A DNA stretch of 64,000 nt, taken from the IMG/VR virus record IMGVR_UViG_3300031994_000053, positions 25,879-89,878 of that record, one strand, 5' to 3'. The notes below the pieces were generated by a model that saw only the letters and a list, made by a program, of their open reading frames with translations, made no database searches and had not been told where the DNA came from. This stretch comes from a virus (lineage: Duplodnaviria; Caudoviricetes). The translations under genes and the position numbers were made by a program. Shown in pieces: positions 14,237 through 60,040 of the stretch. Position 1 is the stretch's first letter. Each line of letters begins with the position of its first letter.

Positions 14237-15439
14237 AGAAGGCTCTTTGGCCCCGCCGCCGGGTTCTCCTTGGCTCTTTCCCGGGGCGGGGCCGTTTTTC
14301 TTTTCCGGCCTCGGCGACTGCCGGACCTTCGCGATGATGTCCCGGATGCGCTGGACGTTCGCCTGCTCCTCCCCGGTCTGCGGGGCGCCCATTTCCATCA
14401 CGGCGTCGAGGAACTCGACGGCCTCGTCGAGCTGCTCGTCCGTGGGGTCCTCGACGGACGTGTCGAAGGTGCAGATGCGGGCGAGGATCGTCCGGCGCAG
14501 CATGAGTTCGTCGCCGGCGTAGGCGGTGTCGGAGAAGAATTTCCTCTGCTCCCCCGTGGGCTCGGCCTGCGGGTCGAAGCCGTTGACCTCCATGAGAACG
14601 CGGAACGCCTCGTTGTACGCCGTGCAGAGGCCGTCCCGCTTGTCCTTGAAGACCTTCGGGTTGATCACTATGCGCGCGGGGGCCGAGGGCTCGGGGGCGG
14701 GCTGGGGGTCGGGCCCGCGTGTCTTCGAGCCGGAGACGCCGCCGCCTTTGGCGTCCTGCCGGACTTCCGCGTCGGCCTTCACGCGATATAGGTCCCCCGC
14801 CCTCAGCGTGGTGTCCGTCAGCTTGGGGTTGAGTTCCTTCAGCCGCTCCACGGACACCCCGGCGAGCTTCGCGAACTCCCCGATCGACCGGATGTCCTCG
14901 CCGACGCGCATGTGCGTCCCCGCGTCGAGCAGCGCCTTGTATTCCGGATACTCGTAGTCTTCGCCGAAGAAGTTCTTGTGGCCGAGGCGCCGGCGCGTCT
15001 CCAAACCCCGCATGATCCGGCCGCCGGCCTTCCGGTACGACGGGTACTCCGCCTTGACCGCGTCGAGCAGCTCCTGTTCGTTCTTCGCGGCCTTCAGCGC
15101 CTCGTGCAGGAGCGGCGACCTCCGCTCGGTCAGCACGTCGCGGACACCGAACGCGACGTCGATCAGCGCGCGCTTCCCGGCGTCGGGGATCTCGTCGTAC
15201 CTCGGGATCGTTTTCCCGAGCCACGCCTCGCGCTCCTTGATGTCACGCGTCAGCAGCGCGTCGGCGTCCTCCTCCGTGATGACATCGCCTTTCTGGACCT
15301 GCCCCCCGTCGGCGCGGAAGTGGCTCCCGTAGCCATAGTAGTACTTTTCGTCCACGTCCGGCTTATCCGCGGTTCCGGTGAACCCCTCCCGGTCCTTGAG
15401 GTGGTCCCGGAGCGTCTTGTCCTGTGCCAGTGTCGCCAT
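14174..15439 (-). CDS. GH24-like lysozyme plus LysM plus C-terminal domain; likely virion-associated
   Basis: REG..D..GYGSH, ITEEDADALLTRD, ALIDVAF, YRKAGG..MRGL..RR; LysM SIGEFAKLAGVSVERLKELNP....LRAGDLYRV. Confidence 0.8.
   Translation of the reverse strand: MATLAQDKTLRDHLKDREGFTGTADKPDVDEKYYYGYGSHFRADGGQVQKGDVITEEDADALLTRDIKEREAWLGKTIPRYDEIPDAGKRALIDVAFGVRDVLTERRSPLLHEALKAAKNEQELLDAVKAEYPSYRKAGGRIMRGLETRRRLGHKNFFGEDYEYPEYKALLDAGTHMRVGEDIRSIGEFAKLAGVSVERLKELNPKLTDTTLRAGDLYRVKADAEVRQDAKGGGVSGSKTRGPDPQPAPEPSAPARIVINPKVFKDKRDGLCTAYNEAFRVLMEVNGFDPQAEPTGEQRKFFSDTAYAGDELMLRRTILARICTFDTSVEDPTDEQLDEAVEFLDAVMEMGAPQTGEEQANVQRIRDIIAKVRQSPRPEKKNGPAPGKSQGEPGGGAKEPSSEQAGGGAPPGQAPLGAQPE
14249..14304 (+). 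terminator. Intrinsic terminator closing the + strand arm, lying inside the 3' end of the antisense lysozyme ORF
   Basis: GGCCCCGCC-G-CCGGG / CCCGG-GGCGGGGCC stem, then GTTTTTCTTTT. Confidence 0.65.
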
Positions 15440-18400
15440 TTACCTTCCCTCCCCCTCGAGTTCGTAGAACCCCGCGGCCCGCGGGTGCTCCCTGAAGAAT
15501 TCGAGATCCGCCTCAGTGTACTCTTCGGGCGTCTGCACGACTTTGATGCCGAATATGGTATCAGGTATCTTGTCCGTCGCGAGGAAATTGCCGAGGGCGG
15601 CGCCGCCGTTCGCGGCCTCGCGGACCTCCGGCCCGTACTCGATCGCCATGTTCGGGTTGGCATACGCCTGGCCGAGCATCAGGTACATGGCCCGCCCCTC
15701 CGCGTCACCGACCCGTGCACCGGACGACTTCACGCGCGAGCGCATCGACGCGACGGCCCGGTCGAACGCGCCCCCGAGCCGCAGGGCCGCACGGGCCGGG
15801 CGGTTCAGCGATGCGCTGTCAAACGGCGCCGACGGGTCGTACTTCATCAGCGCGCGGAAGAGCTCGCCGTAGTACTTGGCGAGCAGTTCCTGCGATGTGC
15901 TCTTCATGAGCGCGGCCGGGTCGTAGCCGTTGCGCCGCGCCTCGAGCAGCACGTCGTTGACCTTCGCGTACCGGCCGCGCCCGTCGCCGGTCGCGTAGCC
16001 GCGCCGGTCGTTCCGGGCCCAGAGGTCGAGCTGCTTCGTCAGCTCCTTGCCGAGCGCGGTCTTCGACGCGCCGCGCTGCACCGGCAGCGCCATCGAAACG
16101 AAACCGGCGTCCCGGTTCCGGGTCATCCCGCTGAACGAGAACGGCATCCACGCCTGCATGAGGTTCCAGGTCGCGCCGTCCACGGTGGGTGAGAGCCAGC
16201 GCTCGGCCCAGCCCATCTCGCTCCACGGGAGCGCCTGGGCCATGTAGCCGGGGTTGAACCCGAGAATGCCCTCGGTGACGCGCTGGGCCGGCATCGACAG
16301 CTTGGACAGGAATTGTCCGATCGGATCCTCGAACCAGCGGACCTCCTCCCACCCCTGCTTGCCGGCGTGGACGTAGACCCGGCGGTTGTACGACCCGTTG
16401 GCCGGATCGTCACCCATGTACAGCGGAATGAAGTCCGGCGAGACGCGGCCGGCGGTTGCACCGAGCCCGGCGCCAACCAGCCCGGTGAGCCAGTTCCCGC
16501 CTCCGGCGTAACCGGCCACGGCGCCTGCCGCTGCGCCGGCGACGCCCGCGCCGAAGCGCCCGCCCCGCTTGAACGAGCGGAGCGCGCCCCCGAGCCGCGT
16601 GTCGTCGAACCGCGCGATGGCGCGGAGCAGCGGGGTTATGTCCGCAGACTTCCAGCGGGCGCGGTCCTCGTTCTGCCACGTGAACCAGACGTCGCGGTTG
16701 TGCCAGCTGTGGCGGTCGGCATAGGCTGCCATCTCGAACCTGTCGCGCCCCCGCCCGTACTTCGCGAGGAATTCGGGCCCGCCCATGCCGGCGGTCGCCC
16801 GGGCGAACCGGACCTTCTCCGCGGCCGTGCGCTCCCTGTGGAACGCGGCGTAGAACTCCTCGTCGGACAGGCGGTCGTCGTCGTCCCCGTCCATGCCGCC
16901 CGCGGCGGCGTCGAGCACCTTCGCGAGCGCGGTGGACAGGATCTGGAGGACCTGCGGGAACCCGAGCATGACAAGCCCGAGCATCCGTGCCCAGCGCCCT
17001 ATGTAGTGCGCGCGCTCCTGGCGGCTCGCGGTGTTCGTGCCGAACGCGAGATCCTCGAGGACCTTGCCGCCCCCAGCCTCCCACGCGCCGCGGGTCCACT
17101 GCCACGAGAACATCAGCACGTTCAGGAGCCTGCGGTTCGCCGGATGCGCCCACGAGTACTTCAGCGGGTCGAGCCCGCCGACCTCGGCGTTGATGTAGTC
17201 CGCGTACTTCTTCAGGTCGCGGATCGGGTCGAACGCCTTGCCCTGGCGTTCGGCCAGGTAGCGGAGCTTGGTCGCGAGCTGCGCGGTCACGGCGAGCTTG
17301 GTCGCGTTGAGCGCGTAGTTGAACGCCTTGTCCGACTGGCGGAGCGCGACGTCGCGGGCCATGCGCCCGAACTTCGCCGCGATCTCCGCGCCGTAGGTGT
17401 CGCGGATTATCCGCTTCAGGTGGTCGAGATCCCCCTGCGTCATGGCCTGCGCGTCCTCAAGCGGGCTCACGAGACTCGTGGAGGTCCGCACGCCGAGCGC
17501 GTTGGCCCAGGCGTACAGCTCCGCGAGGAACGGGTCGTTCGAGTCCATCATGTCGACGATGTCCGAGAAGCCCAGGAAGTTCTTGGTGATCCAGGCGGGG
17601 CCGCCCGGGAGCTTCCGCAGGAAATCGAACGCTTTCGGGTGCTCGCGCATGTAGTCGGCGATTGGTTTATAGTTCCCGCCGAGCGTGGCGAGCGCGCCGA
17701 CCGCGGCGGTCGGGGACTCGAACCGGGTCGCCAGCGGGAAGAAGAACGAGAAGCTCACGCTCATCGCCTTCGACCAGCCGAGGGCGCGGTGCAGGAGGGA
17801 GCGCGCGGCGGGGCCGCCCGTGCCCATCGCCCGGCTCGCGCCGAGGAACTGCTGGAGGTAGCCGAGCGCCTCGCCCAGGCCGAGCTTGTCTATCGCGAAG
17901 TCCGCGATTCTTCCGTGCGGTGCGGCCTCCTCGGCCTCGCGGACGAGCCACCGCTCCACCGAGGCGATCGAGGCGTTCGCGTCCTTGTGCTCGCGGTAGC
18001 GGCAGGCTGTTTCCGGATTTGTCCCGAGAACACCCTTGTTGGCCGTCATCTTCGCCCGCAGCGCGGCGAACTCCCGCTTGGCGTTCTGGACGCCCGACAG
18101 CTTCTCGTCGTAGGCGTCGCCGTTGTACTCACACCACCAGCGGGCCACGTTCTGCCAGAAGGCGTCTGGCAGGCCGGAGACATCGGCCGCGATGTCGGAC
18201 GGGTCCGCGTAGTACACGGGCGCGCCGTCGTACGCGGGCGTCATCAGCATGTTCGCGAGAGTCGCCCGGGACATCATCGCGTTGGCGAGGCCGTCGATGG
18301 CCACGTGGACCTTGTGCCCGATCTGGTAGTTGGCCGGAAGGGTCCCGGTCCGGCGGAACATGTCGAGGTCGTTCAGGCCGACCGCGCCGCCGAACAGCTC

Positions 18401-21400
18401 GCCCCTTGTGAGCGCCGCGTCGCGGTACGCGTCCACGACGTCCATCGCGGCGCGGTAGTCGATCCCGGCCTCCTCCTTCGTCCCGAACTTCGCGGCCCAG
18501 GCGTTCTGGAGGCTCTTCGAGTAGATGGCTTCCGCCAGGCCGGCGTAGGTCGCGTCCGCGGGGAGCTCGAGCCCGGTGCGCCGTGAGCGCGCGGAGCCCG
18601 GCTCGAACCCGCCGGCCGCGATGAGGTCGATGAGAGGCTGCCCCGACACGCCGATGCCGTACAGATTGGACAGCATGTCAAGTCCGTTGATGACCTTGTC
18701 CGCCTGGAGGTCGCGGACGGGAACGTCGGCGAACTCGGAGTCGACGACCGCCTTCATGCGCTCGTAGTCGCGGCTTGCGGCTCCCTGCCGGTCCGCCGCG
18801 CGGTCGCGGAGGGCGCGCTGCGCGTTGTACATGAACACGCCGGAGCCACGCCAGAACGGGAGCGCCGTGCCGAAATTGCTGAAGTACGCGCCGTCGCCGT
18901 GGGTGAGCCACGGGTGCGCCTTCGCAAACCTGACGGCCTTCGAGTAGACGGCCATCATGTCCTTGATTATGGCGTCCCGGTCGAGCATTTCCGGCTTGCG
19001 GCCGCCCTTGTCGGACGTGAGCTTGCGGTACGCCTCGCTTCCGAGGAACGCGTCGTTGATTTCATCGCACGGAATCGTGGCGGCCGCGGACGTGAACCGG
19101 GGGAGCCCGTCGACGTCGTAGCGGTAGTTGTCGCGACACATCCCCTCGACGAGGCCCCTCTCCCGCAACGCGGATATGACGAGCGCGTTGTAGCGAGCGG
19201 ATGTCGGGCCACTGGCGCGGACTAACTTGTCGCCATCGGCCTCGGCCATGGCCGCGATGGCGCTGGCCACGAACCTCCTGCGGTACGGTTCGAGGATTTC
19301 CGGGGGTATCTGGTCGTCCATGCGACGCAGGGCGAACGACAGCGCGTCGAGTTGCTCCGAGTTCGCCAGTCGCCTCGCTATCGCCTCGCGGGAGTAGAAC
19401 GCGGGGTCACGGTTCATGCCGCCGTGGAACCGGATGTCGGCCACGCCAGTCACCACGCGGTCCTGGCGGGAGGCCCGGGCCGCGCACATCTTCTTGAAGA
19501 TGTCGATGATCCGAAGGTCGGATTCGGTCAGGACGATGTCGGCCAGCTGCCGGCGATAGTTGTCGAACTTGAGGTATTTCCCGCCGGCTGCCCACACAAC
19601 CTGGCCGTCTTCGAGTGCGTGCGTCGCATCGTGCTCCAGCAGCTTCAGGATGCGCCCGCCGGCCTCGACATTGTCGCCGAAGAGGAAGGCGTGGAAGTTC
19701 TCGAGCCTCGCGATCTCGCCCTTGATGGCGTCGTACTCGTGCATCTCGGCCGATAGCATCTCGCCGATGTTGCCCTTTGCGCCGAACGACTTGCGGATGA
19801 GCGACCGTGACCACGCGGAGACGTTTTCCGCGATGAAGCTGGACTGGTCGGAGTAGTCGACGAGCCCCGCGTCGCCAGCGAGGTTCGAGTCGCCAGCCGC
19901 CTGGGCCGCCAGCCACTCGGCCGCGGTGAGCCCGGCCGGGACGCCATGCCGCTCCCGCGCCGCCTTCTGGAACTCGAGGTCCTCGGGGGTCGCGGGCTCG
20001 GTGCCGGTCTCCCGGTAGAACTTCGCCATCGCGGCGACCTGGTAGGCCGCGGACACGCACGCCTTGAGGCCGCGCTGGAACTCGGGGTCGGAGACGAGGG
20101 CCCGGCGCCGGGCTATCACCGGCGCGTCGTCATCGTCGAGCAGCCGCGCCGTCGACACGTCGCCCCGCTCGTCGACCTCGTTCACCGGCACGAAGTCCGG
20201 CATCCGCCCGCGGGCGTCCGGCTTCCCGGCCCTCACGCCGGTCCACAGGGCGTGCATCACGCGGTCGATGGTCTCCGCCCCGTCCGTCTCGACGTACCGG
20301 GCGAGGCTTCCAGGGTCCTTCACCATCGCGGCGAGCGCGTCCATCTGCTGCTTCTGGAACAGCAGCTCGGCGGCGAGCTCGCCCCCCGCCCCGTTCTCCA
20401 TGGCGCGCTTCAGCCGTGTCCCCGCGGACGCCGCGGCCCGCGCCGCGACCTTCGACGGGGCAACCGGGTCGGAGGACGTTACCCAGGCGGAAACCTGGTA
20501 CATGCTCGCGTGGCGGGCCTTCGGGTCGCGGCGGAAGTCACCGGTGATCTTGTCGTGGCGCGAGTTCGCGGGCTTGGCCTCGCCCGTCGCGGCGTCCACG
20601 TTGGTCCTCGTTATGAAGCTCGCCTCGAGCGAGTGGTACATCCGGAGCGCGGCCTGGAAGGCTATGCTGTCCCGGATGTCCTTGTCGTTCAGCTTGCCGA
20701 GGGCTTCGGGGTTCACGGTCGCGAGGGCGCGGCGCAGGCCGTTCATCACGATGACGCGGTCGCGGGCCACCTCGCGCGGGTCGGGCAGCGCGTACTTGCG
20801 CGTAACGTATTCGAGCCCGCGGCTCCAGCTGCCGTCGGTCTTGAGCCCGTGTTCCATTGATTCCCTGATCCACCGCGCCGTCGCGTAGAAGTCGTTGGAG
20901 ACCGACAGCGGCAGCGTTCCGCGACGCACGTTCCCCGCCGCCGCGGAGGCATTGGCCGAGGGCGTGCCCGCCGGGTCGGCCGGCGTGGCCTCGAAGAAGT
21001 CCTCCGTGTCGGAGACGGGGGCGGCGTTCCGGTCGTCGGCCACGCTCCGGCGCGTCTCCGCGGACTCCGCGAGAAGGCGGCGGAACTCCGCGTCCGGGAC
21101 GCGCTCCTCGCCTGTCAGCCTCCGCATGACGCGGAGGTCCGCGGCGCGCACCTTTTCGGCGGCCTCGGGGTTGGCCAGCGCGAACTTGTGCCAGCGCTTC
21201 GACCTGCCGAAGTCCGCTATCGTGTTGCCGAGGACAGGGGCCTCGACGTTCGCGGCGGCCGCGGCCTCGAGCTCCTCGGGGGTGCGGACAGTTTCCGACA
21301 CGGCGGGCGCGAAGGCGTTGCTCAGGACCGACGCGATGGCGGTCTCGTCGCCCTCTTCGAGACGCGCGACGGAGTCGTACATGCCCGCTGCCTCGGCGAT

Positions 21401-24400
21401 CGCGGCCTCGTCGTCCGGGTTCTCGCGGGCGCGCGCGGCCGCGGCCTCGGCGGCTTCGGTGCCCGCCGCGACGGCCGATGCGATGGCCTCCTCGTTCCGG
21501 GCCCGGCTTGTCTCCGCAATCCCGTGCACCACCATGTTGAATACGGTGTTGTCGGTGGCGAAGCCCTCGTCCCCGTAGTTGAAGCCATTCTTGAGGGAAT
21601 CCCAAAAGCCCTTGAGGAAATCGAGGATGCGTTGGAACACCCCGCGGGTCTCCGCGCCGGCGACTCCGGCATCCCCCTCGACCCACTTGCGGAACGCCTC
21701 GGCCGCGGCTTCCTCGTTGAAGCCGTGGGCGCGGGACGGGTCCGTGCCGAACTGCTTGCGGAGCGCCTCGTAGTCAGCCTCCCCGAACAGCCCGATGGCC
21801 TCGAACATACGCATCATCGAGTGGAAGTACTCGTGGTACAGTTCGGTGCCCTTCGCCCCGGCAGGAAGCTGGATCGCGCCGACGAGCGTCTGCGCGCCCT
21901 TGCCGCTGAACGACCACTCGACCTTGTGGGACGTGACACCGCCGATCGTCGCCTTGCGGGCGAGTTCCTTGCGGATCTCGAGCGGGAGGCGGGCGAAGTC
22001 GTCGGCCGTGAACGGCCGTTCCTTCGTGCCGAGGTTCACCGCCGCGCAGTACGAGGCCGCGAAGGCCCGCGAGTTTGCGAGGCGCTCCACGTCCTCCTCG
22101 GTCTCGGCGCGGAGGCCCTTGCCCGCGGTCTCGACCACGATGGAGACGCGGCGGCCGAGACCGGCGTTCCCGCGGAGCTTGCCGCGGATCGTGAACGCGG
22201 TGCCGCCGAGGTACTCCACGTTCGCCCAGGACGAGAGCAACCTGCCCATCGCCCTCGCGGCGTTGGCGGCTCGCTCGTCATATGCCCCCTTCGACAGGAG
22301 GGTCGGACGCGCCGGGGGTTCCGGCGCGGCGTTTGGCACATGTCCGACGTTGTACGCGTCGACGGCGTTCACCATGCGCTCGAACCGGTCGCCCGAGAAC
22401 AGCTCGAGCGAATGGCGGAACGGGGCCTGGACCCTGCCACGGGGTTTTCCGGCGGGCGTCCGGGCCTCCGGCGCCATGTCGTTCGCGACGAGAATGGCGC
22501 GGGACTCCGGGCCCAGCGCGGCCTCGGACGCCGACAGCATCCGGTAGTACCGGTCCGGCAGGATGCCAAACAGGGACGGGGACGCGCCGGACGGCGTGCC
22601 GGTCACGCGGGACGTGACGAGCGAGTAGAACGGGAGGATCTGGCCGACCAGCATGGCCGGAGTCACCGCGTCTATGCCGTAGTTTTCCTTCAGCGCGCCG
22701 AGCGCCGCCTTGGCGTCTTCGGCCATTGCCTTCAGCTCTGCCGAGGCGTTGCCGGCTTCCTTGACGAGCGCGTCAACGTTATCCGCGGTAAGCGTGTAGC
22801 CTTTCGCCCGGGCGTATGACTTGGTGGTCGCGTTGGCCGCTTCCATGCCGTCGCCCTCGAATCCCACTGATACGCGACGTTCGCCCGCGTACGCCCGCCC
22901 CGCTATGACGTCGTCAAACATCGCGCGGACACGTTCGTTGGCCGCCGTGTCGTTCTCGCGGTACGTGGGGCCGATGCGAAGGAGCCCGTCGCCCATGCGG
23001 CCGTACGGGAAGTACTTGTGCGGCTTGCCGTCGGAGTCCTCGCCAAAGATGTAGTACGTCTGCTCGCCGTAGCCGGTGTCCCGGCGTGCGGAGATGTACG
23101 CGAACGCCTTGTTGCCGGCCGCGGAGTTGAATTCCTCCGAGGTCACGATGGACCGGTACATCATGCCGAACATGGCCTCGACGCCGCGGCGGAACGCCAG
23201 CACGGTGGGTGCAGGGGCCACGTCCTTGGTGGAGATTTTATCCGCGCGCTTTTCATATATGGCCGCCGATTGGAGATAAGCCTGTTTTTCTTCTCCTTGG
23301 GCCGATTCTGCGGATACGCGCTTATTAACCGCGGCCCTGCGGAGTTTCGCGGCTTCATCCGCCGCGACCGCGCGCCGGGAAACCTCGCCAGCCATCTCGC
23401 GCATCGCCGCGTACATTTGGCGACCGTCCTTGAACACAGAGCCCGCCACGGGAAACGCGGCGAGGCTCGAGAGGAGTCCGTGCACGTACGGGAGCTGCTC
23501 CGCGTTGGACTCGATGTGCATCGCGTCCCAGGACTTGAGCCGGTCGGACTCGGAGACCAGAGGCTCCTTGGGGTCGGTTCCGTCGCGGTACGCGGTCATC
23601 GCGCCTGCCATGACGGTCTGGAGGCCTTCGCCCAGGGAGTATGCCATCCGCGTCGCCGCGTGCATTCTGCTCAAGGTCCCGGCCAGAGGTCCGAGTCCCG
23701 GGATTTCAACAGCCTTGGCGACGTCAAAGGTCGCCTTACCATCTTCCGACGTAAACGCCTCGCGGACCGAATCGCCAAGCGCCGTGGCGTTGGGCGAGCC
23801 CGGGTCGGCCGTCAGGTAGTTGATCGCCTGGCCGAACGACCGTGCGTCGTCAAGTTCGCACTTCATGCCGAACCACCGGGCGAACGCGGGGGCGGACGAT
23901 TCGTGACCCGATGCCAGCCATGCGACATACCCGAACACGGGGTTGTGCCCGCCATCCTTTGCGAGCTCCGTTATCAGCTTCCGCCGTTCGGCCCGTTTAA
24001 GCCCGCTGTTCATGACAGTGCGGAACCACGCGGGGGTCGCGCTCCCGAGTTGCAAAGACCCCGACTCCCATGTAAGGTCCAGGGCCTTCTCCAGCCAAGC
24101 CTTTGTAATGTTGTTCGGATCCGCAGAGTCGCCGGCCACGGCCTTCGCCATGTCTGCGAATTTCGGTCCATTGGCGGCGCCACGGCGTGTGGCGGCCAAC
24201 GCCCAGAGGAACCGGCCGCCATTCTTGATGTCCTTGATGTACGCGCCGAGCACGTCGGCAAACGCCTGGTCCGTCACGGGCAGCCCGGAGTCCCCGGCCG
24301 CCACATAATTGAGGAGGTTCGCGTAGACACTTTCAAGCATCTCCCGCGTCCAGCCCAGACGGCCGCACAGCTGTTCCTTCACGTCGTCGAACGTCGCATT

Positions 24401-27400
24401 GGATATGCCGTCGAGATGGTAGGCGAACTTCCACCAGTTTTCGGACAGGCCCGCGTTGTTCCGGAACATCCGGGGGAATGCGTCGCTCGCCAGCCAGGCG
24501 AGATGGAGGTTACGGGCCAGCGCCACGGCGATGCCACGCGCGTCGCCGGCGTCCTTTGCGGAAGTCGACACTTCGGCGGCGACCTTCGGGTCCCCGAGGT
24601 CCCGTTTATCTTCATTGCTTAGCGTGGGCGGCAGCATATCGTGGCGCAGTTCCTCCGCGGCCGCTCCACTGACCGGGAACGCCTTGGTCGGTGCCGACAC
24701 GAGCCCGTCAGGCGCCAGGAACGTCTCGCGAGGCACTCCGGAATTTTCGGAACTGAACCGGTCGACCAGCTGGAGCTTGTTCCCCTCCTGGTCCACGGCC
24801 GCGTGCACCGGCATGTGGCGCGCCATCTCGAACAGCGCCTTGACGAACGTATTGGAAACCCGGCGCCTCGCGTCCTCGGAAATTTTGTAATAAACGTCCT
24901 CTCCGGCCTCTGTCGCCTCGTCGACCGGCTTCTCCGTGTCGGACTCGGGGTCGTACCGCCAGGCTTCCAGGAACTTGCGCGTCTTCTTGTCCGCCCGGAA
25001 CGTCGCGGCTTCTGTCAGAAGCGCCCGGACGCCGTCGGGGTTGTTTTCAATTTTGTCGGGGTCCCCTTGATACTGCGGTATCTCAGCCTCCGGCAGCTGG
25101 CCGGTCCAACTTTGGTAAAGCAAGTATGCCTTGGTCTTGTCACCGTCGTGGTCGCAGCCGAGAAGCTGGTTGGTGAACGGGTCGGGCTGGACCATCGCGT
25201 CGGCGCCGACGCGCCAGCCCAGGGTCTTCCCCTTCGTGTCCTTCTCCTCAATCTCCGTGGCGGGAAGCCCGGCGCGGACCACCTGGAGCCACATGGACCC
25301 GTTGTAGGACGGGGTGCGCGGCAAGCCGAACATGGTGCCACCGAGCACGATGTGCTTCTGCCCGGTCGCGTCGTTGAAGATCTGGTCCCGCGACTCGCAC
25401 ATGACGGCCGTGAGGTCGAACACCTGTGCACCGGTACCCTTCGGGTCGTCACGGAACAGGTCGTCGAAACCGAAGTTGTCCGCCGCGCCCGGTATGTCGG
25501 ATATGTACCGGCCGTGGTGGTCCTTGAAGCACTCCGCGATCCGCCGCCGGAGGGCCGACCTTTCACCCCTGTCCTTGGTCCCGCGCAGGTTCTCGAACAC
25601 CCGGGCGATGCCGAGCGCGACCAGCTGGCCGGAGGTGAGCACGCCTTCGTGGTCTTTCGTGTAGTCTAGCAACGCACCCGAAATCTCGCTGTCGAAAGCC
25701 GTCCTGAACTTACCCTCGTCGAGGAACCAGGCGTACCGGAAGTTGCGCTGCGAGTAGTTGACGTTGCAGAGCGCGAAGTTGCGGTCCGCGCCGTAGAACC
25801 CCCGTTCCGACTTGCTGTACAGGCAGGAGCCGCGCATCACGTCGCGCTGCATCTGGCTGGCCGACATCGTGAACAGCTTCCCGTTGTCGTCCAGCGCCGC
25901 GCCGGACGACACGAGAGCCATGTCCACGCCGCCGAGCGGGAGGTTGGACGCCTGCCGTATCTCAGCCCACACCTGGCGGGCGAGCTCCTCGCGGGCAAAC
26001 TGCCCGCCGGCCGACTCGCCAGCCTCGCGGAGCTCGTTGAAGTGGCGGGCGCGCCGGGTCACGGAGCGCACGTACTCCGGGTTGGAGTAGACCGCGTTGG
26101 CGAACACGCCCCAGTCGGCGATGAGACCGAGGGCTTTCTGCGCAAGGCCCGGCGCGTTGTCGAGCGCGCCAAAGCGGGCGAGCGCCGTGGCCATCGTGGC
26201 CATGTCGACCTCGTAGTTGCGCGGGGACCGGCCCGGGACGTTCGGAAGCCTGGAGTTGTGGGACACGTTGGCCACGGGATACGCCATCGCGCCGTCCTCG
26301 CGGTACGAGAAGTCGAGCGCGGGGCCGGACAGGCCCGGAAGGTAGCGCAGTTCCGCGCCCGGCAGCAGCTCGGACAGCTTCATCGTCGATTCGCCGCGGA
26401 CGTCGTCCTTCACGGCGATGTCGCCGAACATCGCATCCAGCTGGTCGCCGGACACGCCACCCCCGAACGCGGTCCGCAGGGCCTTGTCGAGCTCGTCGAA
26501 CAGCACCTGCTTCCGCTCCCCGTCCTTGAGGTCGCCTTTACTGAACTTGCCGTCAACCGCCTTGTCGAACGCGAGGTCGTAGATGACCTTCATTAGGGTC
26601 CCGCCGTATTTGCGCTCCTGCCCGCCGACGATCGCCTTGACAGTGACCGTGATGGACTTGGACGACAGCGGGCCTATCTTGTAGGAATCCCTGTCGGTGA
26701 AGACGTCGGTGGACAGGTCGTCCGCGCCGCGGTACTTCGCGAGGTAGTCGTCGATGGCGCGGTCGGCGGAACCGGGCGCGAACTCGCCCGACCCGGAGGA
26801 CGTGGCGACGGACAGGGATTTGCCGAAGAACAGGTCGCGGCCCTGCGTGGAGATGAGGTGGACCTTGAGCAGGGACGAGGATGGGTCCTGCGCGGTCTCC
26901 TTCAGGGCGCGCGCCGCATAGCCGCGCATGAACGTGGAGCCGAGGAGCGCCTCGTTGGGCTTCTTGGCGTAGCCGTTCTCGCCGCCGAAGCTGAAGTCCC
27001 CGTCGTAGAACCGGAAATTCTCGCCGACGTGGATGCGGTTCTCGCCCCATGTGCGGTTGCCATCCTGGCCCACGCGAGTGCCAACCATGCCGACGCCCGT
27101 GGCCTCAAGGGATGAGATCGCGGAGCGCTTGGCGTCCACGCCCATGAGGGCCATGCCGATCGCACGGTAGACGGCCTTTGACGCCTCTTCGTAGGAAGGT
27201 ACGTGTTTTTTATCAGACGGTTGAGTCGCCGCCGGCGTTTCCTGGCGTAGCCGCTGGCGTGCCTCAGAAAGCGCTTTTGGGAACTCCGTGGCCCAAATGC
27301 CACGATCTTGCGTGTGGGTAAATGTCGCAGACCCCGTGTCAAGCAAAGCTCGCTTCGCCTCCGGGTTCTGCCGGAACGACTCGAAAACCAAGTCGCGCAT

Positions 27401-30400
27401 CAACTGCACATTGGTCCTGGTATCTGCCTGTCGGAAGCTGCGAATCTTCTTGCCCGCCGCCCACCTCTGTCGGTAGGTTGTTTCATCGAACGACCCGCTT
27501 TTCAGTGTTTGATACGCGTGCTCGACGGAAACGTAATCATGCCCCTGGAAAGAGAATGGCCGACTCGCCAAATTGCTGAACTCGGCGTTTTCGCCCGTCC
27601 CATGCCAAACGTTTATCGGGCCCTTAGGCTGACTAACAGTTTGGGTCGGTTGCTGCGCAACTTGCTGTAGGGCCTCCACCGTCAAATCAACCTCGCGCGG
27701 TATCTGGAGCAGCGTGTTGGACGAGTGGTCGCCAGAGAACAGCGGGACATAGTACGTCGTGCGCTTCTGATCACCGGCCATCGCCTCGTAGGAACGGCGG
27801 CAAGCCTCATACACTTCGTTCGGGCTGAAGCTGGCCGACAGGCACTTCGCGCAGATCGGGGTCCGCGCGGCATCCGGCCACGTGGCGTCCTGGCGGCACT
27901 CGGCTATGACCTCGTCAGTCACGCCGGGGAAGAACCGGCGGCACGTCTCGGCGAACGTCGGGAGCGTGGTCCCGTCCGCGAGCTTCAGCGCGGTGGACTC
28001 GTCGGCGTAGAGCCAGCGCGACACGAGGGGCACGAGGTCCCGGGGCGCCACGGCTATCGAGGACGCCTTGGTCCCGCGCCGCTGGTCGATCTCGGCCGCC
28101 ATGATGGTCGTGGGGAGGCTGTTCTGGAAAATGTCGAGGACGGAGAACACGGGGCTCTCCATCGCCACGCTGGACGACGCGCCGGCGACGCCCGCGGCCT
28201 GCGGGTTGCCGGTCGCGATGGCGGCCGTCATCACGGCGGATATGTCGGAACGCGACAAGTTCCCGGACATCCGGGACAGCGAGTCGAGCGCATAGGCTAT
28301 CGTGTCGATGAACTCGACCGTCTGGGCCTTTGGCTGGTACTTTGTCTTGTCGGGGCGCTCGATTTCCGCCGGCACGGGCATTCCGTCCCGTATGCGCAAC
28401 GCGGTCACGCCATTTGAATACCCGTGCGGGCGTAACGTAAGCGCCAAATTCTGCAACACCTCGGTCCGTACGCGGGCAAGCTGTGCGAACGCCATGTCGG
28501 AAGACAGCGCCGTGCAGAGCGGGGACTCGCGCCCGAACGCCTGCCCGATGATGCCGGACAGGACCCGCATGTTCTGCTTCACGGCGGCTATGAGCTGCGC
28601 GCGCGTCGCGTTGGCCGGTTGCTTGGGTGCCCAGCCGGCCGCGTCGTCGGCAGCCTTGAGCAACTGGTCCTTCAGTTCCCTTGCCTTGGCTGCGGGCCGC
28701 CCGTCGAGCTCGGCGAAGCTGTCGGCCACAAGGGACTCGGCGATGCGGCCGCCCCCGCGGGACTGTGCCTCGCGGATCACCATGCCGCCGCCCTCGTTCT
28801 CCTTGAGGGCTATCGGGGTCGCCGCGACGGAGTACGCCATGAGGCGGGCCAGGCGGAAACGCCCGTTCGGGCGCATCGAGGTCAGATAGGAAAGGAGGAA
28901 CGCGCCCTTGCGGGACACGGGCCTGCCGTCCGTACCGTTCCCGAGGAGCGACCGGATGTACCCGTTGGCCTCCTCGCCGCCGAGCTTCAGGAGGTCCTCG
29001 CGGAGCAGGGCGTCGTGCTGCGGGAGCGACGCCCCCTCACGGTTGGCCCTCGGGTTGAGGATGCGGTACAGGAACTTCCCGGCGTCGCTGGGCGCCGCGT
29101 CGGCGCGCACCGACCCGCGGGCGAGGCGGACGAACCCTTGGAGGTTCGCGCCGGTTTCCGGGGACGCCTTCGCGGCGAGCGCGAGAAACGTGCGCATGGC
29201 GTCGGACGTGTACTCGTCGACCGCGACACGGTTGTAGTCGTCGGACGAAAGGCTCTCGTCGTCCTTCACGTCCTCGGCGAAGAACCACACGCCGGACGAC
29301 GCGGCGTCGGACCAGTCCCCCCGGTTCCTCACGCGGTCGTCGTCCATGCGGGTGTACGCCGCCAGGACCTCGGCGCGGTCCGCGGCGTCCATGCCGGGGA
29401 ACATCTTTCGGAGGACGCCGGCCACGCCGGCGCGATTCACGGGTTCGCCGCTCGCCAGAAGGGCGCGGACGGCGACCGCCGCGGCCGTGTCGGCCTCGCG
29501 GGGCTCGAGGTGTCGGCCGGCGGGGCCGACCTCCAGCCCGTGCATCACGGTGAAGCCGTCGAGGTTCGCCGCGTCGGGCGCCATCGCCGGGAGCTCGCGA
29601 GTCCCGCCGAACACCACGGTGGGGTCGTCTTCGAGCACGATGTCGTCGTTCGTCGTGTCGTCGTTCGAGTCGATGGCCGTCACGCTGCGCGGACTCCAGG
29701 TGGCTCCGGCGCGGCCGCCGAGGTCACTTGCGCGGACGACCCGCGCTCCCGTCTCGGCCTGGACCTTATCAAGATTTGTCGCAGCGTCCTTCGCGGCGTC
29801 ATCGGCTGCCTGGTACTCGGCGCGTGCCCGGTTCACTTCTGCATTGAGGTCTTCAACAGATGCGCCGGACTCCGCGGCGGCTTCGGCCACGGCCTCCGTC
29901 CCCTCGACCCGTGCGGCGGCCGCGTCAAGTTTGGCCATCGCGTCAATCACATTCCTGCGGGCTTCGTTCCGTCTCTCCTCCGCGTCGACTTTTGCGTTTG
30001 CCGCCTCGGCCACGCGTTCCGCCGGTGTCTGGTCCACATTGTACAGCGCGCGCTTGATCTCGCCGAGCATCCCGCGGGCCGCCGTCTTCTGGGCCTCGGT
30101 GACGGTCGGGTCGGTCACCGCGTCCTCCATCAGCTTGGCCATGACCTTGGTGAACGCGCGCGGGACACTGCCCTCGCGGGTCATTTCGGCAGTCCTCTTG
30201 AGCACGCCGACGAGCCTGGACATGAAGTTGAGGTGGGCTTCCGCGGCCTCCGCGGCCGTGGCCTTCGGGGTCTCGGCCTCCTTCGCCGCCTCCTTCAGCT
30301 CCTCGGTCTCCTTCGGGGACGCGGCCTCCCGCGACGCACCCTCGGACTTCAGCATCGATGTCATGCCCTGGAGCATCCGGTCGAGGAACTGGGAGTACGT

Positions 30401-33400
30401 CATCCCGGCGGGGAGCGACGCCTCCAGCGACTTCCTCATCGCCTCGGCGTCCCCGTCAGCCCACGCCATCAGGGCCGCGACGCCGCGGGGTTCGGCCGGG
30501 GCGGACTTGTCCCGGTTCGCCGCGCGGACGGCCTCGGAGAGGAACCCGTCGCCGCCAAGCACGAGGTCCGCCGTGTTCATGAAGAACGCGTAGGACGGCA
30601 GCCTGCGGGCGCGCTCGGCAAGGACCGCGGCGGCGCGGAGGAACGGGTTCTCCTTGTACTTCTCGGCGCGATTCAGCACGAACGCCGATACGATGCGCGC
30701 GAACCCCTCGCCGGTGAGTCCGGCTGTGTGGCGGGCCTCGTACCGGCCGTCCTCGGTCTCCACCACGACGTCGGAGCCGCGGAGGTAACTGTCGCGGAAG
30801 TTCCTGATCTGTTCGGCCAGCGGCACGTCCTTCGCCTTGTAGGCGTCCTCGATGGCCTGGTCGGCCACGGCGGAGAGCTGCCGGATGTAGTCCGCCGTGT
30901 TCTCGCCTGTCGCGCCGGTGGACAGCAAATGCCCGCGGTTGAGGAACGCCCGGAGCATGACACCGTTCAGCACGGCATCCATCATGTCGGCGTTGACCGT
31001 CGGGTCAACCTGGATGAAGACATCGGACGAGACATTGGCGACGCGGCCCGCGGACATCTTGAACGTGTACCTCGGGTGCGTGTACGCGGCAGCTTCGCCC
31101 GTGACGGCGGACGATCCGTCTTTCTCGACGCCGTGCCGCGTGAGGATGCGCTCGCCGACCGTCATGTAGCCAGTCTCGCCCCAGACGCGCTCCCACGCCT
31201 TGCGCTCGTCCGTGCCGGCGTCCGCGGTCTCCCCGCGCGCCGCCGCGGCGAGCTCCCTCGCCAGGACATCGCGCGCCGCGTCCTCCTCCAGCAACTCGCC
31301 CGATTCCTTCTGGCGGAGCATCGGATGGAGGCTGTCGTTCTGCGCGGAGACGCCGCCGAGCGCCCTGTAGTACTCGCCGGAGTAGCCCAGCTCACGGAGC
31401 GCGTGGAACATGTCGCCGAACTCGATGACCTTCGCCTGGGTGATGACATACCTTCCGCGCTCGCGGGCCCAGCCGTGCTCCACCAGGGACGCGACGGCCT
31501 CGTCACGGGTGCCGAAGGTTTCGGACGCCTGCCCGTCGATGCCGACGACCCACTTGCCGCCAGTCTCGCGGAGACGCGCGCGCTCGGTGCCGTTGGGCGA
31601 GAGCCTTGCGGCCATCCCGCGAAGGTCCTCCACGGGCTTCGAGTAGTATTCGGTGCCGCGGTCCCTGTCGGCCGTCAGCAACTTGGCCATCCTGAAGATC
31701 TCGTCATTGCGTGCGGCAAGGCCCTTTTCGGTGCCGTCGAACCCGCGGCGCATCGACTGCGCGACGGACTCGAACACAATGCCGTCGACATCCGACACGT
31801 TCGCCTTGCCCCCGATGTACTCGATCGCGTCGGCCGTGGCCGTGCTGACCGCACCCCCGCGAAGAATCTCGGCCAGGGGCACGTCGCCCTCGTCGGTGCG
31901 TATGCGGTGGAGCAGGCCGTCTTCGCCGACGATCCTCGCGGCGGCGTCGTACACGGCTATGGCCGCGAGGTCCGACCTCGAGTTCACCGCGTTGTCGACC
32001 GCCTGGACGACCTTGCCGTCCACGTTGGCGCTATAGCTAAGGCCCCGGACGACAAGGTCCGTAGTCGCCCGCAGAATGTCGCGGTACGCGGCTTCCACCT
32101 CGTCCCGGTGCGCTTCCGCGAACTCCTCCGCGGGAATGACGCTGGTTTCGTCAACGGCCGTCTTGTCCTCCGTCAGGCGGTAGAGCACGGGCTTGCCGTC
32201 GCGTATGGCGGACAGGTACGGGCGCGGGTCCGCCGGGTCCTCGTGGTGCGCGGCTGCGTACTCAAGGGCCTGGGACCGGAACAGCCCCTGGGAAAACGAG
32301 CGGAGCTGGCTGACGGTGGTGTCCGCGCGCATGATGTCGCGGGCCCTCTGGGCGAACCGGCGCTGTGCCTCGTCCAGGACTTGTGCCTGGGTTGGCTTCC
32401 CGCCTTCGGCCTTCACGGCCATCTCGCGGCGCGTCCGGAGGTACTCCTCGCGGAACCCGCTCTTGAGCGCCTTGACGGTGTTTTCCTCCAGCCCCATGTC
32501 GCGGGCCGTCCACTGGGACGGGTTGACGGCGGCCATGCCGAAGTCGCCCGTGGCGAGCGCGGCGGCGAACCCGACGATCTTGTGCGCGGCGCGACGGTAC
32601 CACGCGGGCTCCTCGCCCTCGAGGTGCATCTCGGACGTATAGAGGTCGCGGGCCAGCTCCGGCGCGTAGTCCGCAAGATTGTCGCGGGCGGAAAGCCCCG
32701 CCTCGGCGTCGCGCGCCGAATAGGTCGGGGTCAGCTTGTTCATGAGGTCGTCCGCCAGGAAGCGGCTCGGGATGAGTGGGACGGCGAGCAGCTCGCCGTT
32801 CGCCTTCGCGACTTCATCGACCGTGGCGGAGAAGCTGTTGTGGCGGGCCTCGCGGCGCTCCACGACCTTTGTCGTCTCGGCGATCTGCTCCTCCAGGTCC
32901 TTCGCCTTGGACTCGTCGCCGGCGGCACGGGCCGCGTCGCGAAGCGTCCCGAGCCGCTCGATCTCGGCGCGGTCCTTCTCCTGTAGCATCTCGTGAACGC
33001 CGACATAGTCGCTCCACGTCATCTGCGCGGGGTTCGTGACGCGGTTCACCTCGGCAATGGCGTCGAGCCGCGCCCGCATCTTCGTCAGTTTACCCTCGCC
33101 GCCTATGGCGGACTGGGCGCGGAGAGCCAGGGTCCTGGTCACGCCGGGGATCGCGAAGCCAACGGCCTCCGCGACCAGCTGGTCCCAACCGGGAAGCGCG
33201 CCGGCCTTCGCGCTGGCCAGGCCGGCCTTGAGGTTGCGCCAGAACTTCTCCGGCTCGGACCGCCACTTCGGTCCGTCGGGGTTGGCGTCGAGGCCGAGCA
33301 GCCCGTTAACCACGTCGGCGTAGCGCTCCTCGAACATCTCGCCGAGAACGCCGTCGTAGCCGCCGGTCCGCCACAGGTTGAGCACGGATTCGGCGCCAAG

Positions 33401-57082: not shown

Positions 57083-60040
57083 TCAAGTTTCGGCGAATTC
57101 CAGCTCGTAGCCATCGCCGTCGAACGCGTCGACGCCGTCCGTCGGGTCAGGCATGTACACGGCCGGCGCGACCGGCTCGGGGGACACCAGCGCGGACGGC
57201 GGAGGCGGGACGATGAATCCGAACGGCGGCAGGCCGATCCGCTCCTTGACCGCCAACGCGGCCAGCGCGCAGGCGTCCGCCTCGTCGGGCGACTTCTTGA
57301 AAATGCGCGACTTGAACTGGTCCTTGGGCTCGAGGCGAAGGGGGAACGACGTGGACGTGGTCCCGGCCTTCACGGCGTACCGCCGCTCCTCCAGCGCCCG
57401 AAGCGCCTCCGCGGGCAACCCGCGCACCTGTCCGGCGCGGCAGAACTCCGCGAGGACGCACCACGCCTCGGTGCCGCGGTCGTAAATGGTCTCCTTCGCG
57501 GGGCGGGGGTCGTTGGCGCGAAGGGGCAGGTCCGAAGCACGGGCCGAATTGTTCACGGGCAGCACGTCCGCGCCCGCGTAGATCATCAGGTCGTCGGCCA
57601 GGCCCTGGTTGGCGGAGGCGTCCACCGCCGTGTTGCGGAAAGGGGCCTCGTACGGCTGGCGCATCATCGCGATCGTCTGGTCCCGCATCTGCTGCACGGG
57701 CGGGCGCGGGTCGGACGCCATGATCTTGAGGTAGGACAGCCCGCCCGTGAAATCGAGGATGTTCCGGCCGAAGGCGTCGCGGACCACGCGGACGCGGACG
57801 CGGCAGGCTCCGTCGCCGCCCTCGGACCACGCGGGGTCGATGCCGGCCGCCACGGCCACGATCGCGGACGGGTCGCACTCCATTGGCTCCATCACCTGGT
57901 TGCGCTGGGCGACGGCCCTGTCGAGGACCGTGGGCAGCGCGTCGCCGGAGGGCACGGGGAACCCGCGGATCATCTTCCATATCTGCGGGGCGTCGGCGTT
58001 GCCGTCCGCCTCGCGGAGCGCGGCGTCGATCTCCTCCTTGCTGAGGAGATACGGAAAGGTCTTCCGAAGCGAGGGGTCAAGGACGCACGGGGACTTGAAC
58101 CCGTCGTGATGGCGGACAAACGCGCCAAACGTAGACCGCCAGCAACCGGTGTCGACATTGACGGAATCAACGCCCTTTTCCGGAATGCAGTACTGGCACG
58201 ACGGGTTGGCCCAGGACTCGGGGTTGGCGAGACCGATGAACTTAAAGCTCTTCGTGCCGACCCGGAGGTTGGTCATCGCCGTCTTGATCTCCTGGTGCTT
58301 CTCGATGGTCGCAAGCTCATCGACCACCAGGCGGACATACTGCGCGTGGGCGCCCTGAAGACGGCCGCCCTCCTCGAGGGCGCGGCCCTGTATGCCGGCC
58401 TTGTCGCCAGCCGATTCCGGGTTGTCGGCGTCCGCTTCGTTCTGGAGGGCGAACCCGACCTTCGACATCTTGCCGGGGACGAGGAACTGGGCGTTTGCCT
58501 TGACCGCGGCAAAGTACTTCTCAAGGGAGTCCCAGATGCGGGACCGCAGGTCGACCTTGGTGGTCGAACCCACCAAAGTCACGGTGTCAAAGGGGTCGAC
58601 GAGCCAGTCCAAAAGGATGAGATAGGCATAGTCGTTGGAGTTGTGGGTAACGACGAAATTCCTTATCGGGAAAAGCCCGTGGGTCTCGTTGCCTTCCACG
58701 TCGTGGTCTTCGATAGTTATGCACCGCGTCTCCCGTGGATAATCGGCGCGATTCTCGACCGGTCTGACGGACATGATGCGACGCCAGCCAACCCCTTTAG
58801 CCGCCTCGCGAATCCGATTGCGCTTTCGGGAAAGCTTGAACCACCGGCGCATAGTCTCGGCGGGAACACCGTGCGGCCTCACGGTATAGGCAGTACGGCA
58901 GGAAACACGAACACCGTCCTTTTTATACCCGGACGGATGAACCGCAATCGTAACGCTTGCCCCCAGGGATTCGAACAAAGTCTTAACATTGTCAGCCAAA
59001 CGACGTGATACCGTCGTAAACGACACTTCGCCGAGCGCGCTGACAAAACCATCCGTGTCCAGCAGCCCGGCCAGCAAATCCTCGCGAACCGAAACGGAAT
59101 TAACCAGATACTCTCCGGGGATAAACTTGTCGGCGGAGCAGGACCTGTACAGCCCCAAGGTCTTTAATGCGGAGACATACCGGTTCCTGACCTTCGACCC
59201 AGGTTCTTTTACAATCATATAGCACGTGTGGCTGTTCCCCACGCGTTTCAAATTATACCCCGGCGTGGCTATGCTCAGCCGTCGTTGAATCTCGTCTCTA
59301 ACTTCAACATCATCCACACGGGAAGTCAGCAATATAGTGCCAGTTAAAGACCCGTCCCCGATAAGACACCCTAAAACGTACGGGTCAACGGGGGTATCTT
59401 GCGCGTCAAACTCGACGGGGCTGACCAAAGGTACGGCTGGCTGCCTACGACGAAACGACGCCTCTCCCCACTTAGCGAGCTGCCTGGTAGGGACCGTCCG
59501 GTAAACCCAGCCAGTAACGCCCCGTCGGGTTTTACGTGGCCCCTCCCGCCGAACACGGCCCCAATACCGTATCATCCACAAATGATCGCCGCCGCAAACC
59601 ACCGTGGTGCCATCCTTGAACGTGACATTATACAGCGGGTGGTCCAGGTGGTCGTACACCCCGCGCACCCGGACAGGGTGCCCGGTAGCGGCCATTATGG
59701 TCGACCCGGAAACAACCTCGCGGATCGTCCCGACGTGGTCTGGAAAATAGACCGGCTCGTCAAGCAAAACCTCTTTGCCACTGGACGCGCACCCCCAAGT
59801 GACAACAGTGTTTTCCATGACAAAATCATGGAAATGCTGCTCTGTCCAGGGAGAAACGCGGAAGAGCCGGTCCCCCACGAGCGAACGGGCGGTGTCGAGT
59901 AGGGGAACCCAGGGATCCTTGAACTCGACACCGTACTCCTCACGGAACTCGCGCCATTTCTTCGCGACCGTCAGGTCTATGAACTGGTCGGCCATATCGG
60001 CCGGCCAGTCCACTCCATGCCTTCGCTTGTACTGGCCCAT
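57083..60040 (-). CDS. terL: Terminase large subunit, intein-containing precursor (985 aa; about 607 aa spliced)
   Basis: Walker A GCASSGK|S split by the intein; Walker B LVVDE; IGLANP; nuclease AGIDPA..GGD; C-terminal SPDEADA. Confidence 0.9.
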   Translation of the reverse strand: MGQYKRRHGVDWPADMADQFIDLTVAKKWREFREEYGVEFKDPWVPLLDTARSLVGDRLFRVSPWTEQHFHDFVMENTVVTWGCASSGKEVLLDEPVYFPDHVGTIREVVSGSTIMAATGHPVRVRGVYDHLDHPLYNVTFKDGTTVVCGGDHLWMIRYWGRVRREGPRKTRRGVTGWVYRTVPTRQLAKWGEASFRRRQPAVPLVSPVEFDAQDTPVDPYVLGCLIGDGSLTGTILLTSRVDDVEVRDEIQRRLSIATPGYNLKRVGNSHTCYMIVKEPGSKVRNRYVSALKTLGLYRSCSADKFIPGEYLVNSVSVREDLLAGLLDTDGFVSALGEVSFTTVSRRLADNVKTLFESLGASVTIAVHPSGYKKDGVRVSCRTAYTVRPHGVPAETMRRWFKLSRKRNRIREAAKGVGWRRIMSVRPVENRADYPRETRCITIEDHDVEGNETHGLFPIRNFVVTHNSNDYAYLILLDWLVDPFDTVTLVGSTTKVDLRSRIWDSLEKYFAAVKANAQFLVPGKMSKVGFALQNEADADNPESAGDKAGIQGRALEEGGRLQGAHAQYVRLVVDELATIEKHQEIKTAMTNLRVGTKSFKFIGLANPESWANPSCQYCIPEKGVDSVNVDTGCWRSTFGAFVRHHDGFKSPCVLDPSLRKTFPYLLSKEEIDAALREADGNADAPQIWKMIRGFPVPSGDALPTVLDRAVAQRNQVMEPMECDPSAIVAVAAGIDPAWSEGGDGACRVRVRVVRDAFGRNILDFTGGLSYLKIMASDPRPPVQQMRDQTIAMMRQPYEAPFRNTAVDASANQGLADDLMIYAGADVLPVNNSARASDLPLRANDPRPAKETIYDRGTEAWCVLAEFCRAGQVRGLPAEALRALEERRYAVKAGTTSTSFPLRLEPKDQFKSRIFKKSPDEADACALAALAVKERIGLPPFGFIVPPPPSALVSPEPVAPAVYMPDPTDGVDAFDGDGYELEFAET
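58640..59773 (-). mobile_element. Class 3 intein (378 aa) with LAGLIDADG homing endonuclease, inserted in the TerL P-loop
   Basis: Block A EVLLDEPV; block B GDHLW; LAGLIDADG PYVLGCLIGDG and LLAGLLDTDG; block F TRCITI; block G VVTHN followed by Ser; lower GC than the exteins. Confidence 0.9.

Follow-up and report, generated by a model that had tools for sequence, protein, structure and literature searches.

A domain divided between a giant phage gene and the lysozyme gene that follows it, and its possible role in docking the lysozyme protein

Some phages carry peptidoglycan hydrolases in the virion, as exemplified by T7 gp16, wherein a lytic transglycosylase is a covalent domain of an ejected protein. 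In polymorphic toxin loci such as Rhs and CDI, conserved regions flank swappable cassettes, and certain naturally split proteins are known to reassemble, including split inteins and gene-fission or 'Rosetta stone' pairs. Giant multidomain polyvalent proteins are thought to be packaged and delivered along with the phage DNA, and N4-like phages are reported to have virion RNA polymerases fused to zincin-like peptidase domains, with a lysozyme or transglycosylase domain as well in some cases (Iyer et al. 2017, J Bacteriol, PMC5512222). The N4 ejection cassette gp50-gp51-gp52 encodes a giant virion protein and then smaller co-ejected proteins in one operon (PMC13434306). Here we examine a stretch of 64,000 nucleotides (the window) from the IMG/VR virus record IMGVR_UViG_3300031994_000053, an 89,878-bp record with a GC content of ~66% that CheckV rates as 94% complete. 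The window includes a gene for a protein of 6615 residues that is followed directly by the gene for P0001, a protein of 421 residues that carries a lysozyme. The tail of the giant protein and the C-terminal domain of P0001, called the RIVINP domain after the residues with which it begins, correspond to the N- and C-parts of a single domain family. From sequence comparisons and structure models, we consider it about evenly probable (roughly 0.5) that the two parts reassemble in trans and thereby tether the lysozyme protein to the giant C-terminus.

As for T7 gp16, the end of a virion or ejection gene block encodes an enzyme that cuts the cell wall, next to a large protein, but here the enzyme is a distinct polypeptide whose attachment would depend on the proposed complementation, and gene position is what suggests its place in the virion. 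As in Rhs and CDI loci, conserved flanks and a short demarcation motif (QDAKGG, 30 residues before the domain) border unrelated cassettes in near-identical backgrounds. In contrast to those loci, the cargo lies between two parts of one domain rather than at a C-terminal tip, there is no immunity gene, and the arrangement would belong to a phage virion module. Like other naturally split proteins, the domain is whole in some genomes and occupies two genes in others, with the break located in a loop. Unlike split inteins, however, it lacks intein hallmarks, its C-part follows the cargo at the C-terminus of P0001, and no splicing is implied. A split intein was also considered as an explanation and was rejected, given this position of the C-part and the absence of any Pfam intein match. 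The giant open reading frame (ORF) resembles the polyvalent proteins (PMC5512222) in its DxDGD and HExxH motifs, its NADAR-like stretch and the lysozyme next to it, but this lysozyme belongs to a polypeptide of its own, a split domain would make the connection, and neither part of that domain matches a Pfam or PHROG family. A giant-protein gene followed by smaller genes in an operon recalls the N4 cassette, with which there is no sequence relationship, and the N4 partners form channels rather than cargo enzymes linked by a split domain (PMC13434306). A small domain that is kept split across genes and flanks a hypervariable cargo slot goes beyond both of these accounts (PMC5512222; PMC13434306), as far as the literature was searched.

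The giant ORF spans positions 15440 to 35287 on the reverse strand, as do all of the window features described below. It includes a TAA stop codon at 15442-15440, and the protein ends in ...GFYELEGEGR. The ORF for P0001 (14174 to 15439) begins with an ATG at 15439-15437 that abuts this stop codon in the same frame, and encodes in order the lysozyme, a LysM-like stretch, a Pro-rich linker, the RIVINP domain, and a Pro/Gly-rich tail. An earlier note on this DNA had described an in-frame TAA followed by ATG, wherein the joined frames amount to 7037 residues (6615 + 1 + 421), and had placed the start of RIVINPKVF at residue 256 of P0001. Both descriptions are borne out, and the giant-protein C-terminus is as quoted there, with six further residues (LEGEGR) that had been omitted. 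The chance that two ORFs share a frame is 1 in 3 by itself, and among the relatives of this locus the shared frame is found only in the closest one, L006.

The N-part of the split domain, which we refer to as the tail motif, comprises the last 53 residues of the giant protein (15443 to 15601), with the sequence FLATDK...IFGIKVV...YTEADLEFFREHPRAAGFYE, then LEGEGR. It is scored at E 2e-31 by a hidden Markov model (HMM) of the motif built from relatives, and the alignment has 12 invariant columns. Directly ahead of it lies ANGG (15602 to 15613), which represents the QDAKGG-type linker motif here; relatives have KGG, KAG or NGG in this place. In relatives, the motif of ~50 residues (FLATDKVPDTIFGIPVV, then YTExDLxFFxxHPxAGGYYD) heads separate proteins with differing C-terminal parts, which are lysozyme-like, HExxH peptidase-like or unknown. 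The C-part, or RIVINP domain, corresponds to residues 256-385 of P0001 (14285 to 14674) and begins with a conserved N-terminal stretch, after which come five helices.

Membership of the two parts in one domain family, which the earlier note had proposed, is well supported at the level of homology by sequence comparisons. The family protein P0156 carries the parts contiguously, with the motif at residues 187-228 (E 5e-20 with the motif profile) and the RIVINP domain at residues 231-354, separated by a gap of 3 residues (...GGFYSDS-RIVINP...). A second fused protein, P0151, has the motif, a cargo of ~300 residues, and the RIVINP domain in one chain, and these are the only two such proteins among the 306 family members collected. 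In a distant lineage, represented by two metagenome contigs (L055 and L056), there is a stand-alone ORF of ~126 residues (L056:5677-6054) that aligns without interruption to residues 200-312 of P0156 (38% identity, E 8e-18). Residues 33-112 of this ORF likewise align with residues 256-336 of P0001 (38% identity, E 2e-11), and the motif profile matches its residues 3-28 in hhalign with an E of 0.001 and a probability of 21%. The stand-alone phage family that the earlier note had described has a pattern that this ORF fits (...ERDFFQKNPTVTG...KITLNP...LNEASRIYM...RRTILARILSGDSS...). According to the same note, it would speak against a common domain if every database protein lacked a continuous alignment over the two halves, and the stand-alone ORF does align across both. 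This distant family came from a metagenome scan; a homologue search with the RIVINP alignment, restricted to near lengths, returned close relatives only.

Structure models are consistent with this relationship. In an AlphaFold2 model of P0156, the contiguous form appears as one ordered unit wherein the motif has predicted local distance difference test (pLDDT) values of 79-94, and DSSP assigns strands to FPIV, GFYS and RIVI and a helix at residues 212-220 over TPEDLAFFK. The RIVINP domain modeled alone (P0001 residues 250-390) has a mean pLDDT of 86.6, a predicted TM-score (pTM) of 0.78, and five helices, although its RIVINP stretch is predicted to be coil even though I, N and P are invariant. 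A Foldseek search of BFVD found A0A6J5QIK5, an uncharacterised viral protein of 132 residues, with an E of 0.018 and a TM-score normalised to the target (TMt) of 0.55 for the C-part alone, versus an E of 7e-6 and a TMt of 0.78 for the contiguous model. A VIA search with the P0156 model was dominated by the N-terminal helical hairpin of that protein and is uninformative on the domain.

The order of the two modules is conserved. HMMs of the two modules were run on 45 loci, all non-redundant and taken from public contigs, IMG/VR and JGI metagenomes; in 31 of them the motif is upstream of the RIVINP domain on the same strand, at separations from 16 to 2241 nucleotides. The motif is present in all 27 loci that have at least 2.3 kb of upstream sequence, and the 14 ordinary loci without a motif match have at most 1.5 kb of upstream sequence each. 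Covariation between the motif and the RIVINP domain, assessed by eye at 28 loci, was uninformative because both are too conserved.

Around the two modules, the ORF boundaries shift. The motif ends the giant ORF and the RIVINP domain has the next ORF in L052, with 1 nucleotide from stop to start, and in L015, with a linker of 36 residues; in both the two ORFs are in different frames, and those of L015 overlap by 11 nucleotides. The second ORF carries cargo ahead of the RIVINP domain in the window and in L006. In L002 and L024, the motif and its cargo form an ORF of their own between the giant and RIVINP ORFs, and in L014, L039, L045 and L048 the giant ORF continues through the motif and cargo and is followed by a further ORF (giant-motif-cargo / x-RIVINP). 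Lysozymes related to that of P0001 occur on either side of the stop codon, as motif-lysozyme in L004, L009 and L014 and as lysozyme-RIVINP in P0005, P0006, P0011 and P0069. The natural splits in L052 and L015 fall exactly between the two parts, in the inter-strand loop.

We propose that the giant tail (~50 residues; strand, helix, strand) and the C-terminal ~130 residues of P0001 (the RIVINP stretch and a five-helix bundle) together make up one unannotated domain of ~170 residues. In a lineage of GC-rich phages with genomes of ~90-100 kb, this domain is almost always divided between consecutive late-operon genes, with variable cargo attached to the pieces or placed between them. For the phage studied here, the order is the N-part at the giant C-terminus, the stop codon, a restart coupled through a Shine-Dalgarno (SD) sequence, the GH24 lysozyme and LysM-like cargo, and then the C-part. 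Were the parts to complement one another in trans, GFYE and IKVV, as strands of the giant protein, would pair with the RIVI strand of its partner. A cell-wall hydrolase would thus be tethered noncovalently to the C-terminus of a giant virion protein, the two would be packaged and delivered jointly, and the enzyme could have a role in entry. Docking of this kind is favored by the conserved order, by the rare natural fusions, by the splits in the inter-strand loop, and by a RIVINP stretch that is invariant yet unstructured when modeled in isolation.

Several observations weigh against docking. A direct BLASTP comparison of the window's own giant tail with the stand-alone ORF gave no match, and thus they are linked transitively, by way of the motif profile and P0156. 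The strand pairing in P0156 was read from the DSSP string alone, and contiguity by itself favors a hairpin of adjacent strands. Because the isolated model of the C-part is confident, this part needs no N-part to be a domain, and because only 2 of 306 family proteins are fused, the fusions might have arisen accidentally from adjacency. The location in the virion is suggested by gene position only, in that the P0001 gene is the last gene of a late operon that also holds the large terminase gene and a tail-fibre gene. Finally, P0001 may also, or instead, serve as an endolysin, since it provides the sole match among six peptidoglycan-hydrolase Pfam families.

Some of these points would be expected if the motif and the RIVINP domain were two independent modules that are neighbors through conserved gene order. 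The fusions would then be by-products, and the lysozyme protein would not be tethered through them. The motif would be a short tag, serving for example in packaging, ejection or the binding of a virion part, and the RIVINP domain, as a helical domain apart from it, would have a partner of its own. Such independence, which we regard as unlikely but as deserving serious weight, agrees with a C-part that folds alone with high confidence, with the scarcity of fused proteins, with the 99 of 306 family proteins that start directly at the domain and have no motif in that chain, and with a motif that heads proteins whose C-terminal parts are unrelated. It is harder to reconcile with the distant lineage, which keeps both parts in a compact protein of 126 residues, and with the Foldseek match to a 132-residue viral protein, which improves once the motif is added. 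Nor would independence predict that the isolated model leaves the invariant RIVINP stretch unstructured, or that the natural splits occur exactly at the loop between the parts.

The function of P0001 itself bears on a second alternative. Its GH24 phage lysozyme domain (residues 17-151; 14987 to 15391) matches PF00959 at E 2.2e-10 with 41.4 bits, above the curated cut-off of 22.3, and the match covers profile positions 3-123 of 125. The Glu residue of REGF (residue 18) is at the place expected for the catalytic Glu, as judged by position only. The LysM-like stretch (residues 190-216; 14792 to 14872) matches PF01476 at E 0.018 with 15.5 bits, below the cut-off of 20.9. Thus, of the lysozyme and LysM content that the earlier note had assigned to this protein, the lysozyme is secure and the LysM is a weak match. 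In a Pfam profile search of the 94%-complete genome, P0001 is the only match to PF00959, there are zero matches to PF01510, PF01464, PF01183, PF01520 and PF13539, and no separate endolysin was recognised; PHROG families that match the N-terminal domain of P0001 are labeled endolysin.

These results would fit a plain endolysin that acts inside the cell late in infection rather than being borne by the virion, and whose C-terminal domain serves in regulation or in cell-wall binding. We consider this rather improbable. The RIVINP domain is found on many cargos that are not lysins, and also stands alone, which argues against a wall-binding domain specific to lysins. The gene for P0001 appears to be translationally coupled to a giant late gene, and the closest relatives have other cargo (L006) or none (L015) at this place, and thus this is not a locus dedicated to lysis. 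Moreover, the endolysin alternative concerns the timing of the enzyme and is compatible with docking.

An exchange of cargo is evident when the window is compared with L006, its closest relative and an independent assembly. In this blastn comparison, DNA identity of ~90% extends from 22 nucleotides before the motif to 11 nucleotides past the stop codon, and is regained from QDAKGG, 73 nucleotides before RIVINP, onward. The ~680 nucleotides between these flanks are without similarity, and encode the lysozyme and LysM-like stretch in the window and an unrelated cargo of 280 residues in L006. The lysozyme-LysM segment (14751 to 15431) is therefore an exchangeable cassette situated between the two parts, as the earlier note had supposed, although the order of events that it gave, insertion first and stop codon second, is not upheld. 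A stop codon after the motif is seen without cargo (L015 and L052), with unrelated cargo (L006), and with lysozyme, and for this reason the lysozyme most likely arrived after the split, the reverse of that order.

The QDAKGG linker motif at which similarity resumes (P0001 residues 225-230; 14750 to 14767) lies 31 residues ahead of the RIVINP domain. Motifs of this type, [QE][DAQ][ADSG][KEL][GA]G, typically read RQDAKGG and sometimes occur as 2-3 repeats, and they are present in 98 of the 155 RIVINP proteins that have an N-terminal extension. Their distance to the domain is fixed (median 30 residues, interquartile range 29-33), and they are 29 times denser there than elsewhere. Such a motif may serve for cleavage or for binding, or may mark recombination. 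Cleavage at QDAKGG-type motifs throughout the giant protein was considered as well; with one site only, immediately before the tail motif, the body of the protein was no longer regarded as a polyprotein.

The clean swap between the window and L006, with flanks that are 90% identical and breakpoints at the stop/ATG junction and at the QDAKGG motif, raises the possibility that the conserved flanks are kept mainly as DNA substrates for homologous recombination, which would swap cassettes with no complementation between proteins. This is quite improbable, since the tail motif differs between the window and L006 at 16 nucleotides (90% identity) but by only 3 amino-acid changes (94% identity), and since the 38% protein identity of the distant stand-alone form is far beyond homology at the level of DNA. 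The few amino-acid changes and the distant protein similarity together indicate selection on the protein.

The junction itself is the same in L006, except that TAG replaces TAA. In both, a Shine-Dalgarno sequence, GGAGG (15448 to 15452), is located 8 nucleotides 5′ of the ATG, within the final codons of the giant gene. The fact that the stop codon is TAA in one genome and TAG in the other, with the SD sequence conserved, indicates that the stop is maintained. As far as can be read from the sequence, it is a genuine gene boundary followed by an SD-coupled restart. Readthrough or recoding of the TAA to give a single polypeptide of 7037 residues, a prospect raised in the earlier note, would agree with two ORFs that abut in frame and with relatives in which motif and cargo share one chain (L014 and P0151), but it is highly improbable, and programmed readthrough was rejected, because TAA is an efficient stop codon that is not conserved in L006, GGAGG precedes the ATG, and the ORFs of L015 and L052 are out of frame.

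The RIVINP domain defines a sizable family. An HMMER scan of 1.84 billion representatives, clustered at 50% identity, found it in at least 322 clusters at E<=0.001, and in 139 at E<=1e-30, in proteins that range in length from 103 to 1579 residues. Its onset is always sharp, at R-I/V-I/V-I/V-N-P, and the sequences that precede and follow it are unrelated between proteins. Among the 306 collected proteins, the 99 noted above have the domain beginning at most 12 residues from the N-terminus, and in 119 it is preceded by more than 200 residues. No Pfam family, LPD domains included, and no PHROG family matches the domain, and a Pfam search of ten cargo-bearing relatives left almost all of the cargo without annotation. 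Among 50,697 deposited phage genomes, tblastn queries with P0001, with the RIVINP domain and with the giant-protein tail gave no real match; single-sequence scans of IMG/VR yielded zero relatives, and a profile was required to find them.

A Foldseek search of the PDB with the RIVINP model returned nothing at E<=0.001, and the best score in an ESM Atlas search, 0.84, was below the level of a usable lead. When the same model was examined with VIA-align, the top three structures were the type III secretion gatekeepers BopN (Z 6.4), CopN (5.8) and MxiC (5.2), with SepL (5.0) also listed; this resemblance between a model and these proteins appears to be within the noise for helical bundles, though it forms a consistent cluster. 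In the distant lineage, a gene for an 'amidase' of 510 residues (phrog_5107, E 1e-119) comes immediately before the intact stand-alone domain gene, which overlaps its stop codon (the two genes span L056:4133-6057), and both genes lie inside a block of major head, tail and virion structural genes. Because the amidase gene adjoins the stand-alone domain gene, the association of a RIVINP-type domain with a wall hydrolase is seen to recur. In relatives, a gene at L004/L005:10478-11437 has a weak match to the Pfam family Hom_end_hint (homing endonuclease/intein hint); it is separated by a few genes from the RIVINP gene, on its downstream side.

The giant protein offers few clues to its own activity. 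Its sole Pfam or PHROGs signal is the NADAR-like stretch at residues 2566-2671, which is sub-threshold (26.5 bits against a cut-off of 35.1). The DxDGD-type motif is DHDGD at residue 3379, and the HExxH-type motif is HEYFH at residue 4485. The 900 residues around DHDGD have no PDB sequence match at E<=1, and none in Pfam or PHROGs. It may be an ejected or virion RNA polymerase, as the earlier note had assumed; of the features of a two-barrel enzyme (crAss-like or YonO-type), which combines a DxDGD metal-binding motif with double-psi beta-barrels, it carries the motif. Where polyvalent proteins are recognized by several effector domains, including a zincin-like metallopeptidase, the giant protein shows just an HExxH motif and the sub-threshold NADAR match.

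Elsewhere in the window, a large terminase of 985 residues is encoded at 57083-60040. Terminase PHROGs match two separated stretches of this protein (residues 83-469 and 558-935), and residues 77-361 also match primase and helicase-loader PHROGs, which would fit an inserted element such as an intein. The neighboring gene at 60062-62056 encodes a protein of 664 residues with strong matches to collagen-like tail-fibre PHROGs (phrog_5073, E 1e-33).

A broader possibility, which we put forward tentatively, is that the two parts constitute a natural two-piece connector, wherein a tag of ~45 residues and a catcher of ~130 residues, both derived from one ancestral domain, would clip interchangeable enzymes onto a protein of ~6000 residues and onto each other. 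The enzymes so clipped might be lysozymes, peptidase-like proteins and unknown cargos, with stops and cassettes moving freely across a whole lineage of uncultured phages, although we hold this extension a little short of evenly likely. If the two parts do bind, this would explain how fast-changing enzymes are kept attached to a giant virion protein without covalent fusion, and why gene boundaries move freely in this region. Binding would also define an unannotated domain family whose split site has been mapped by evolution, and the tag and catcher pair could be a useful tool for protein engineering.

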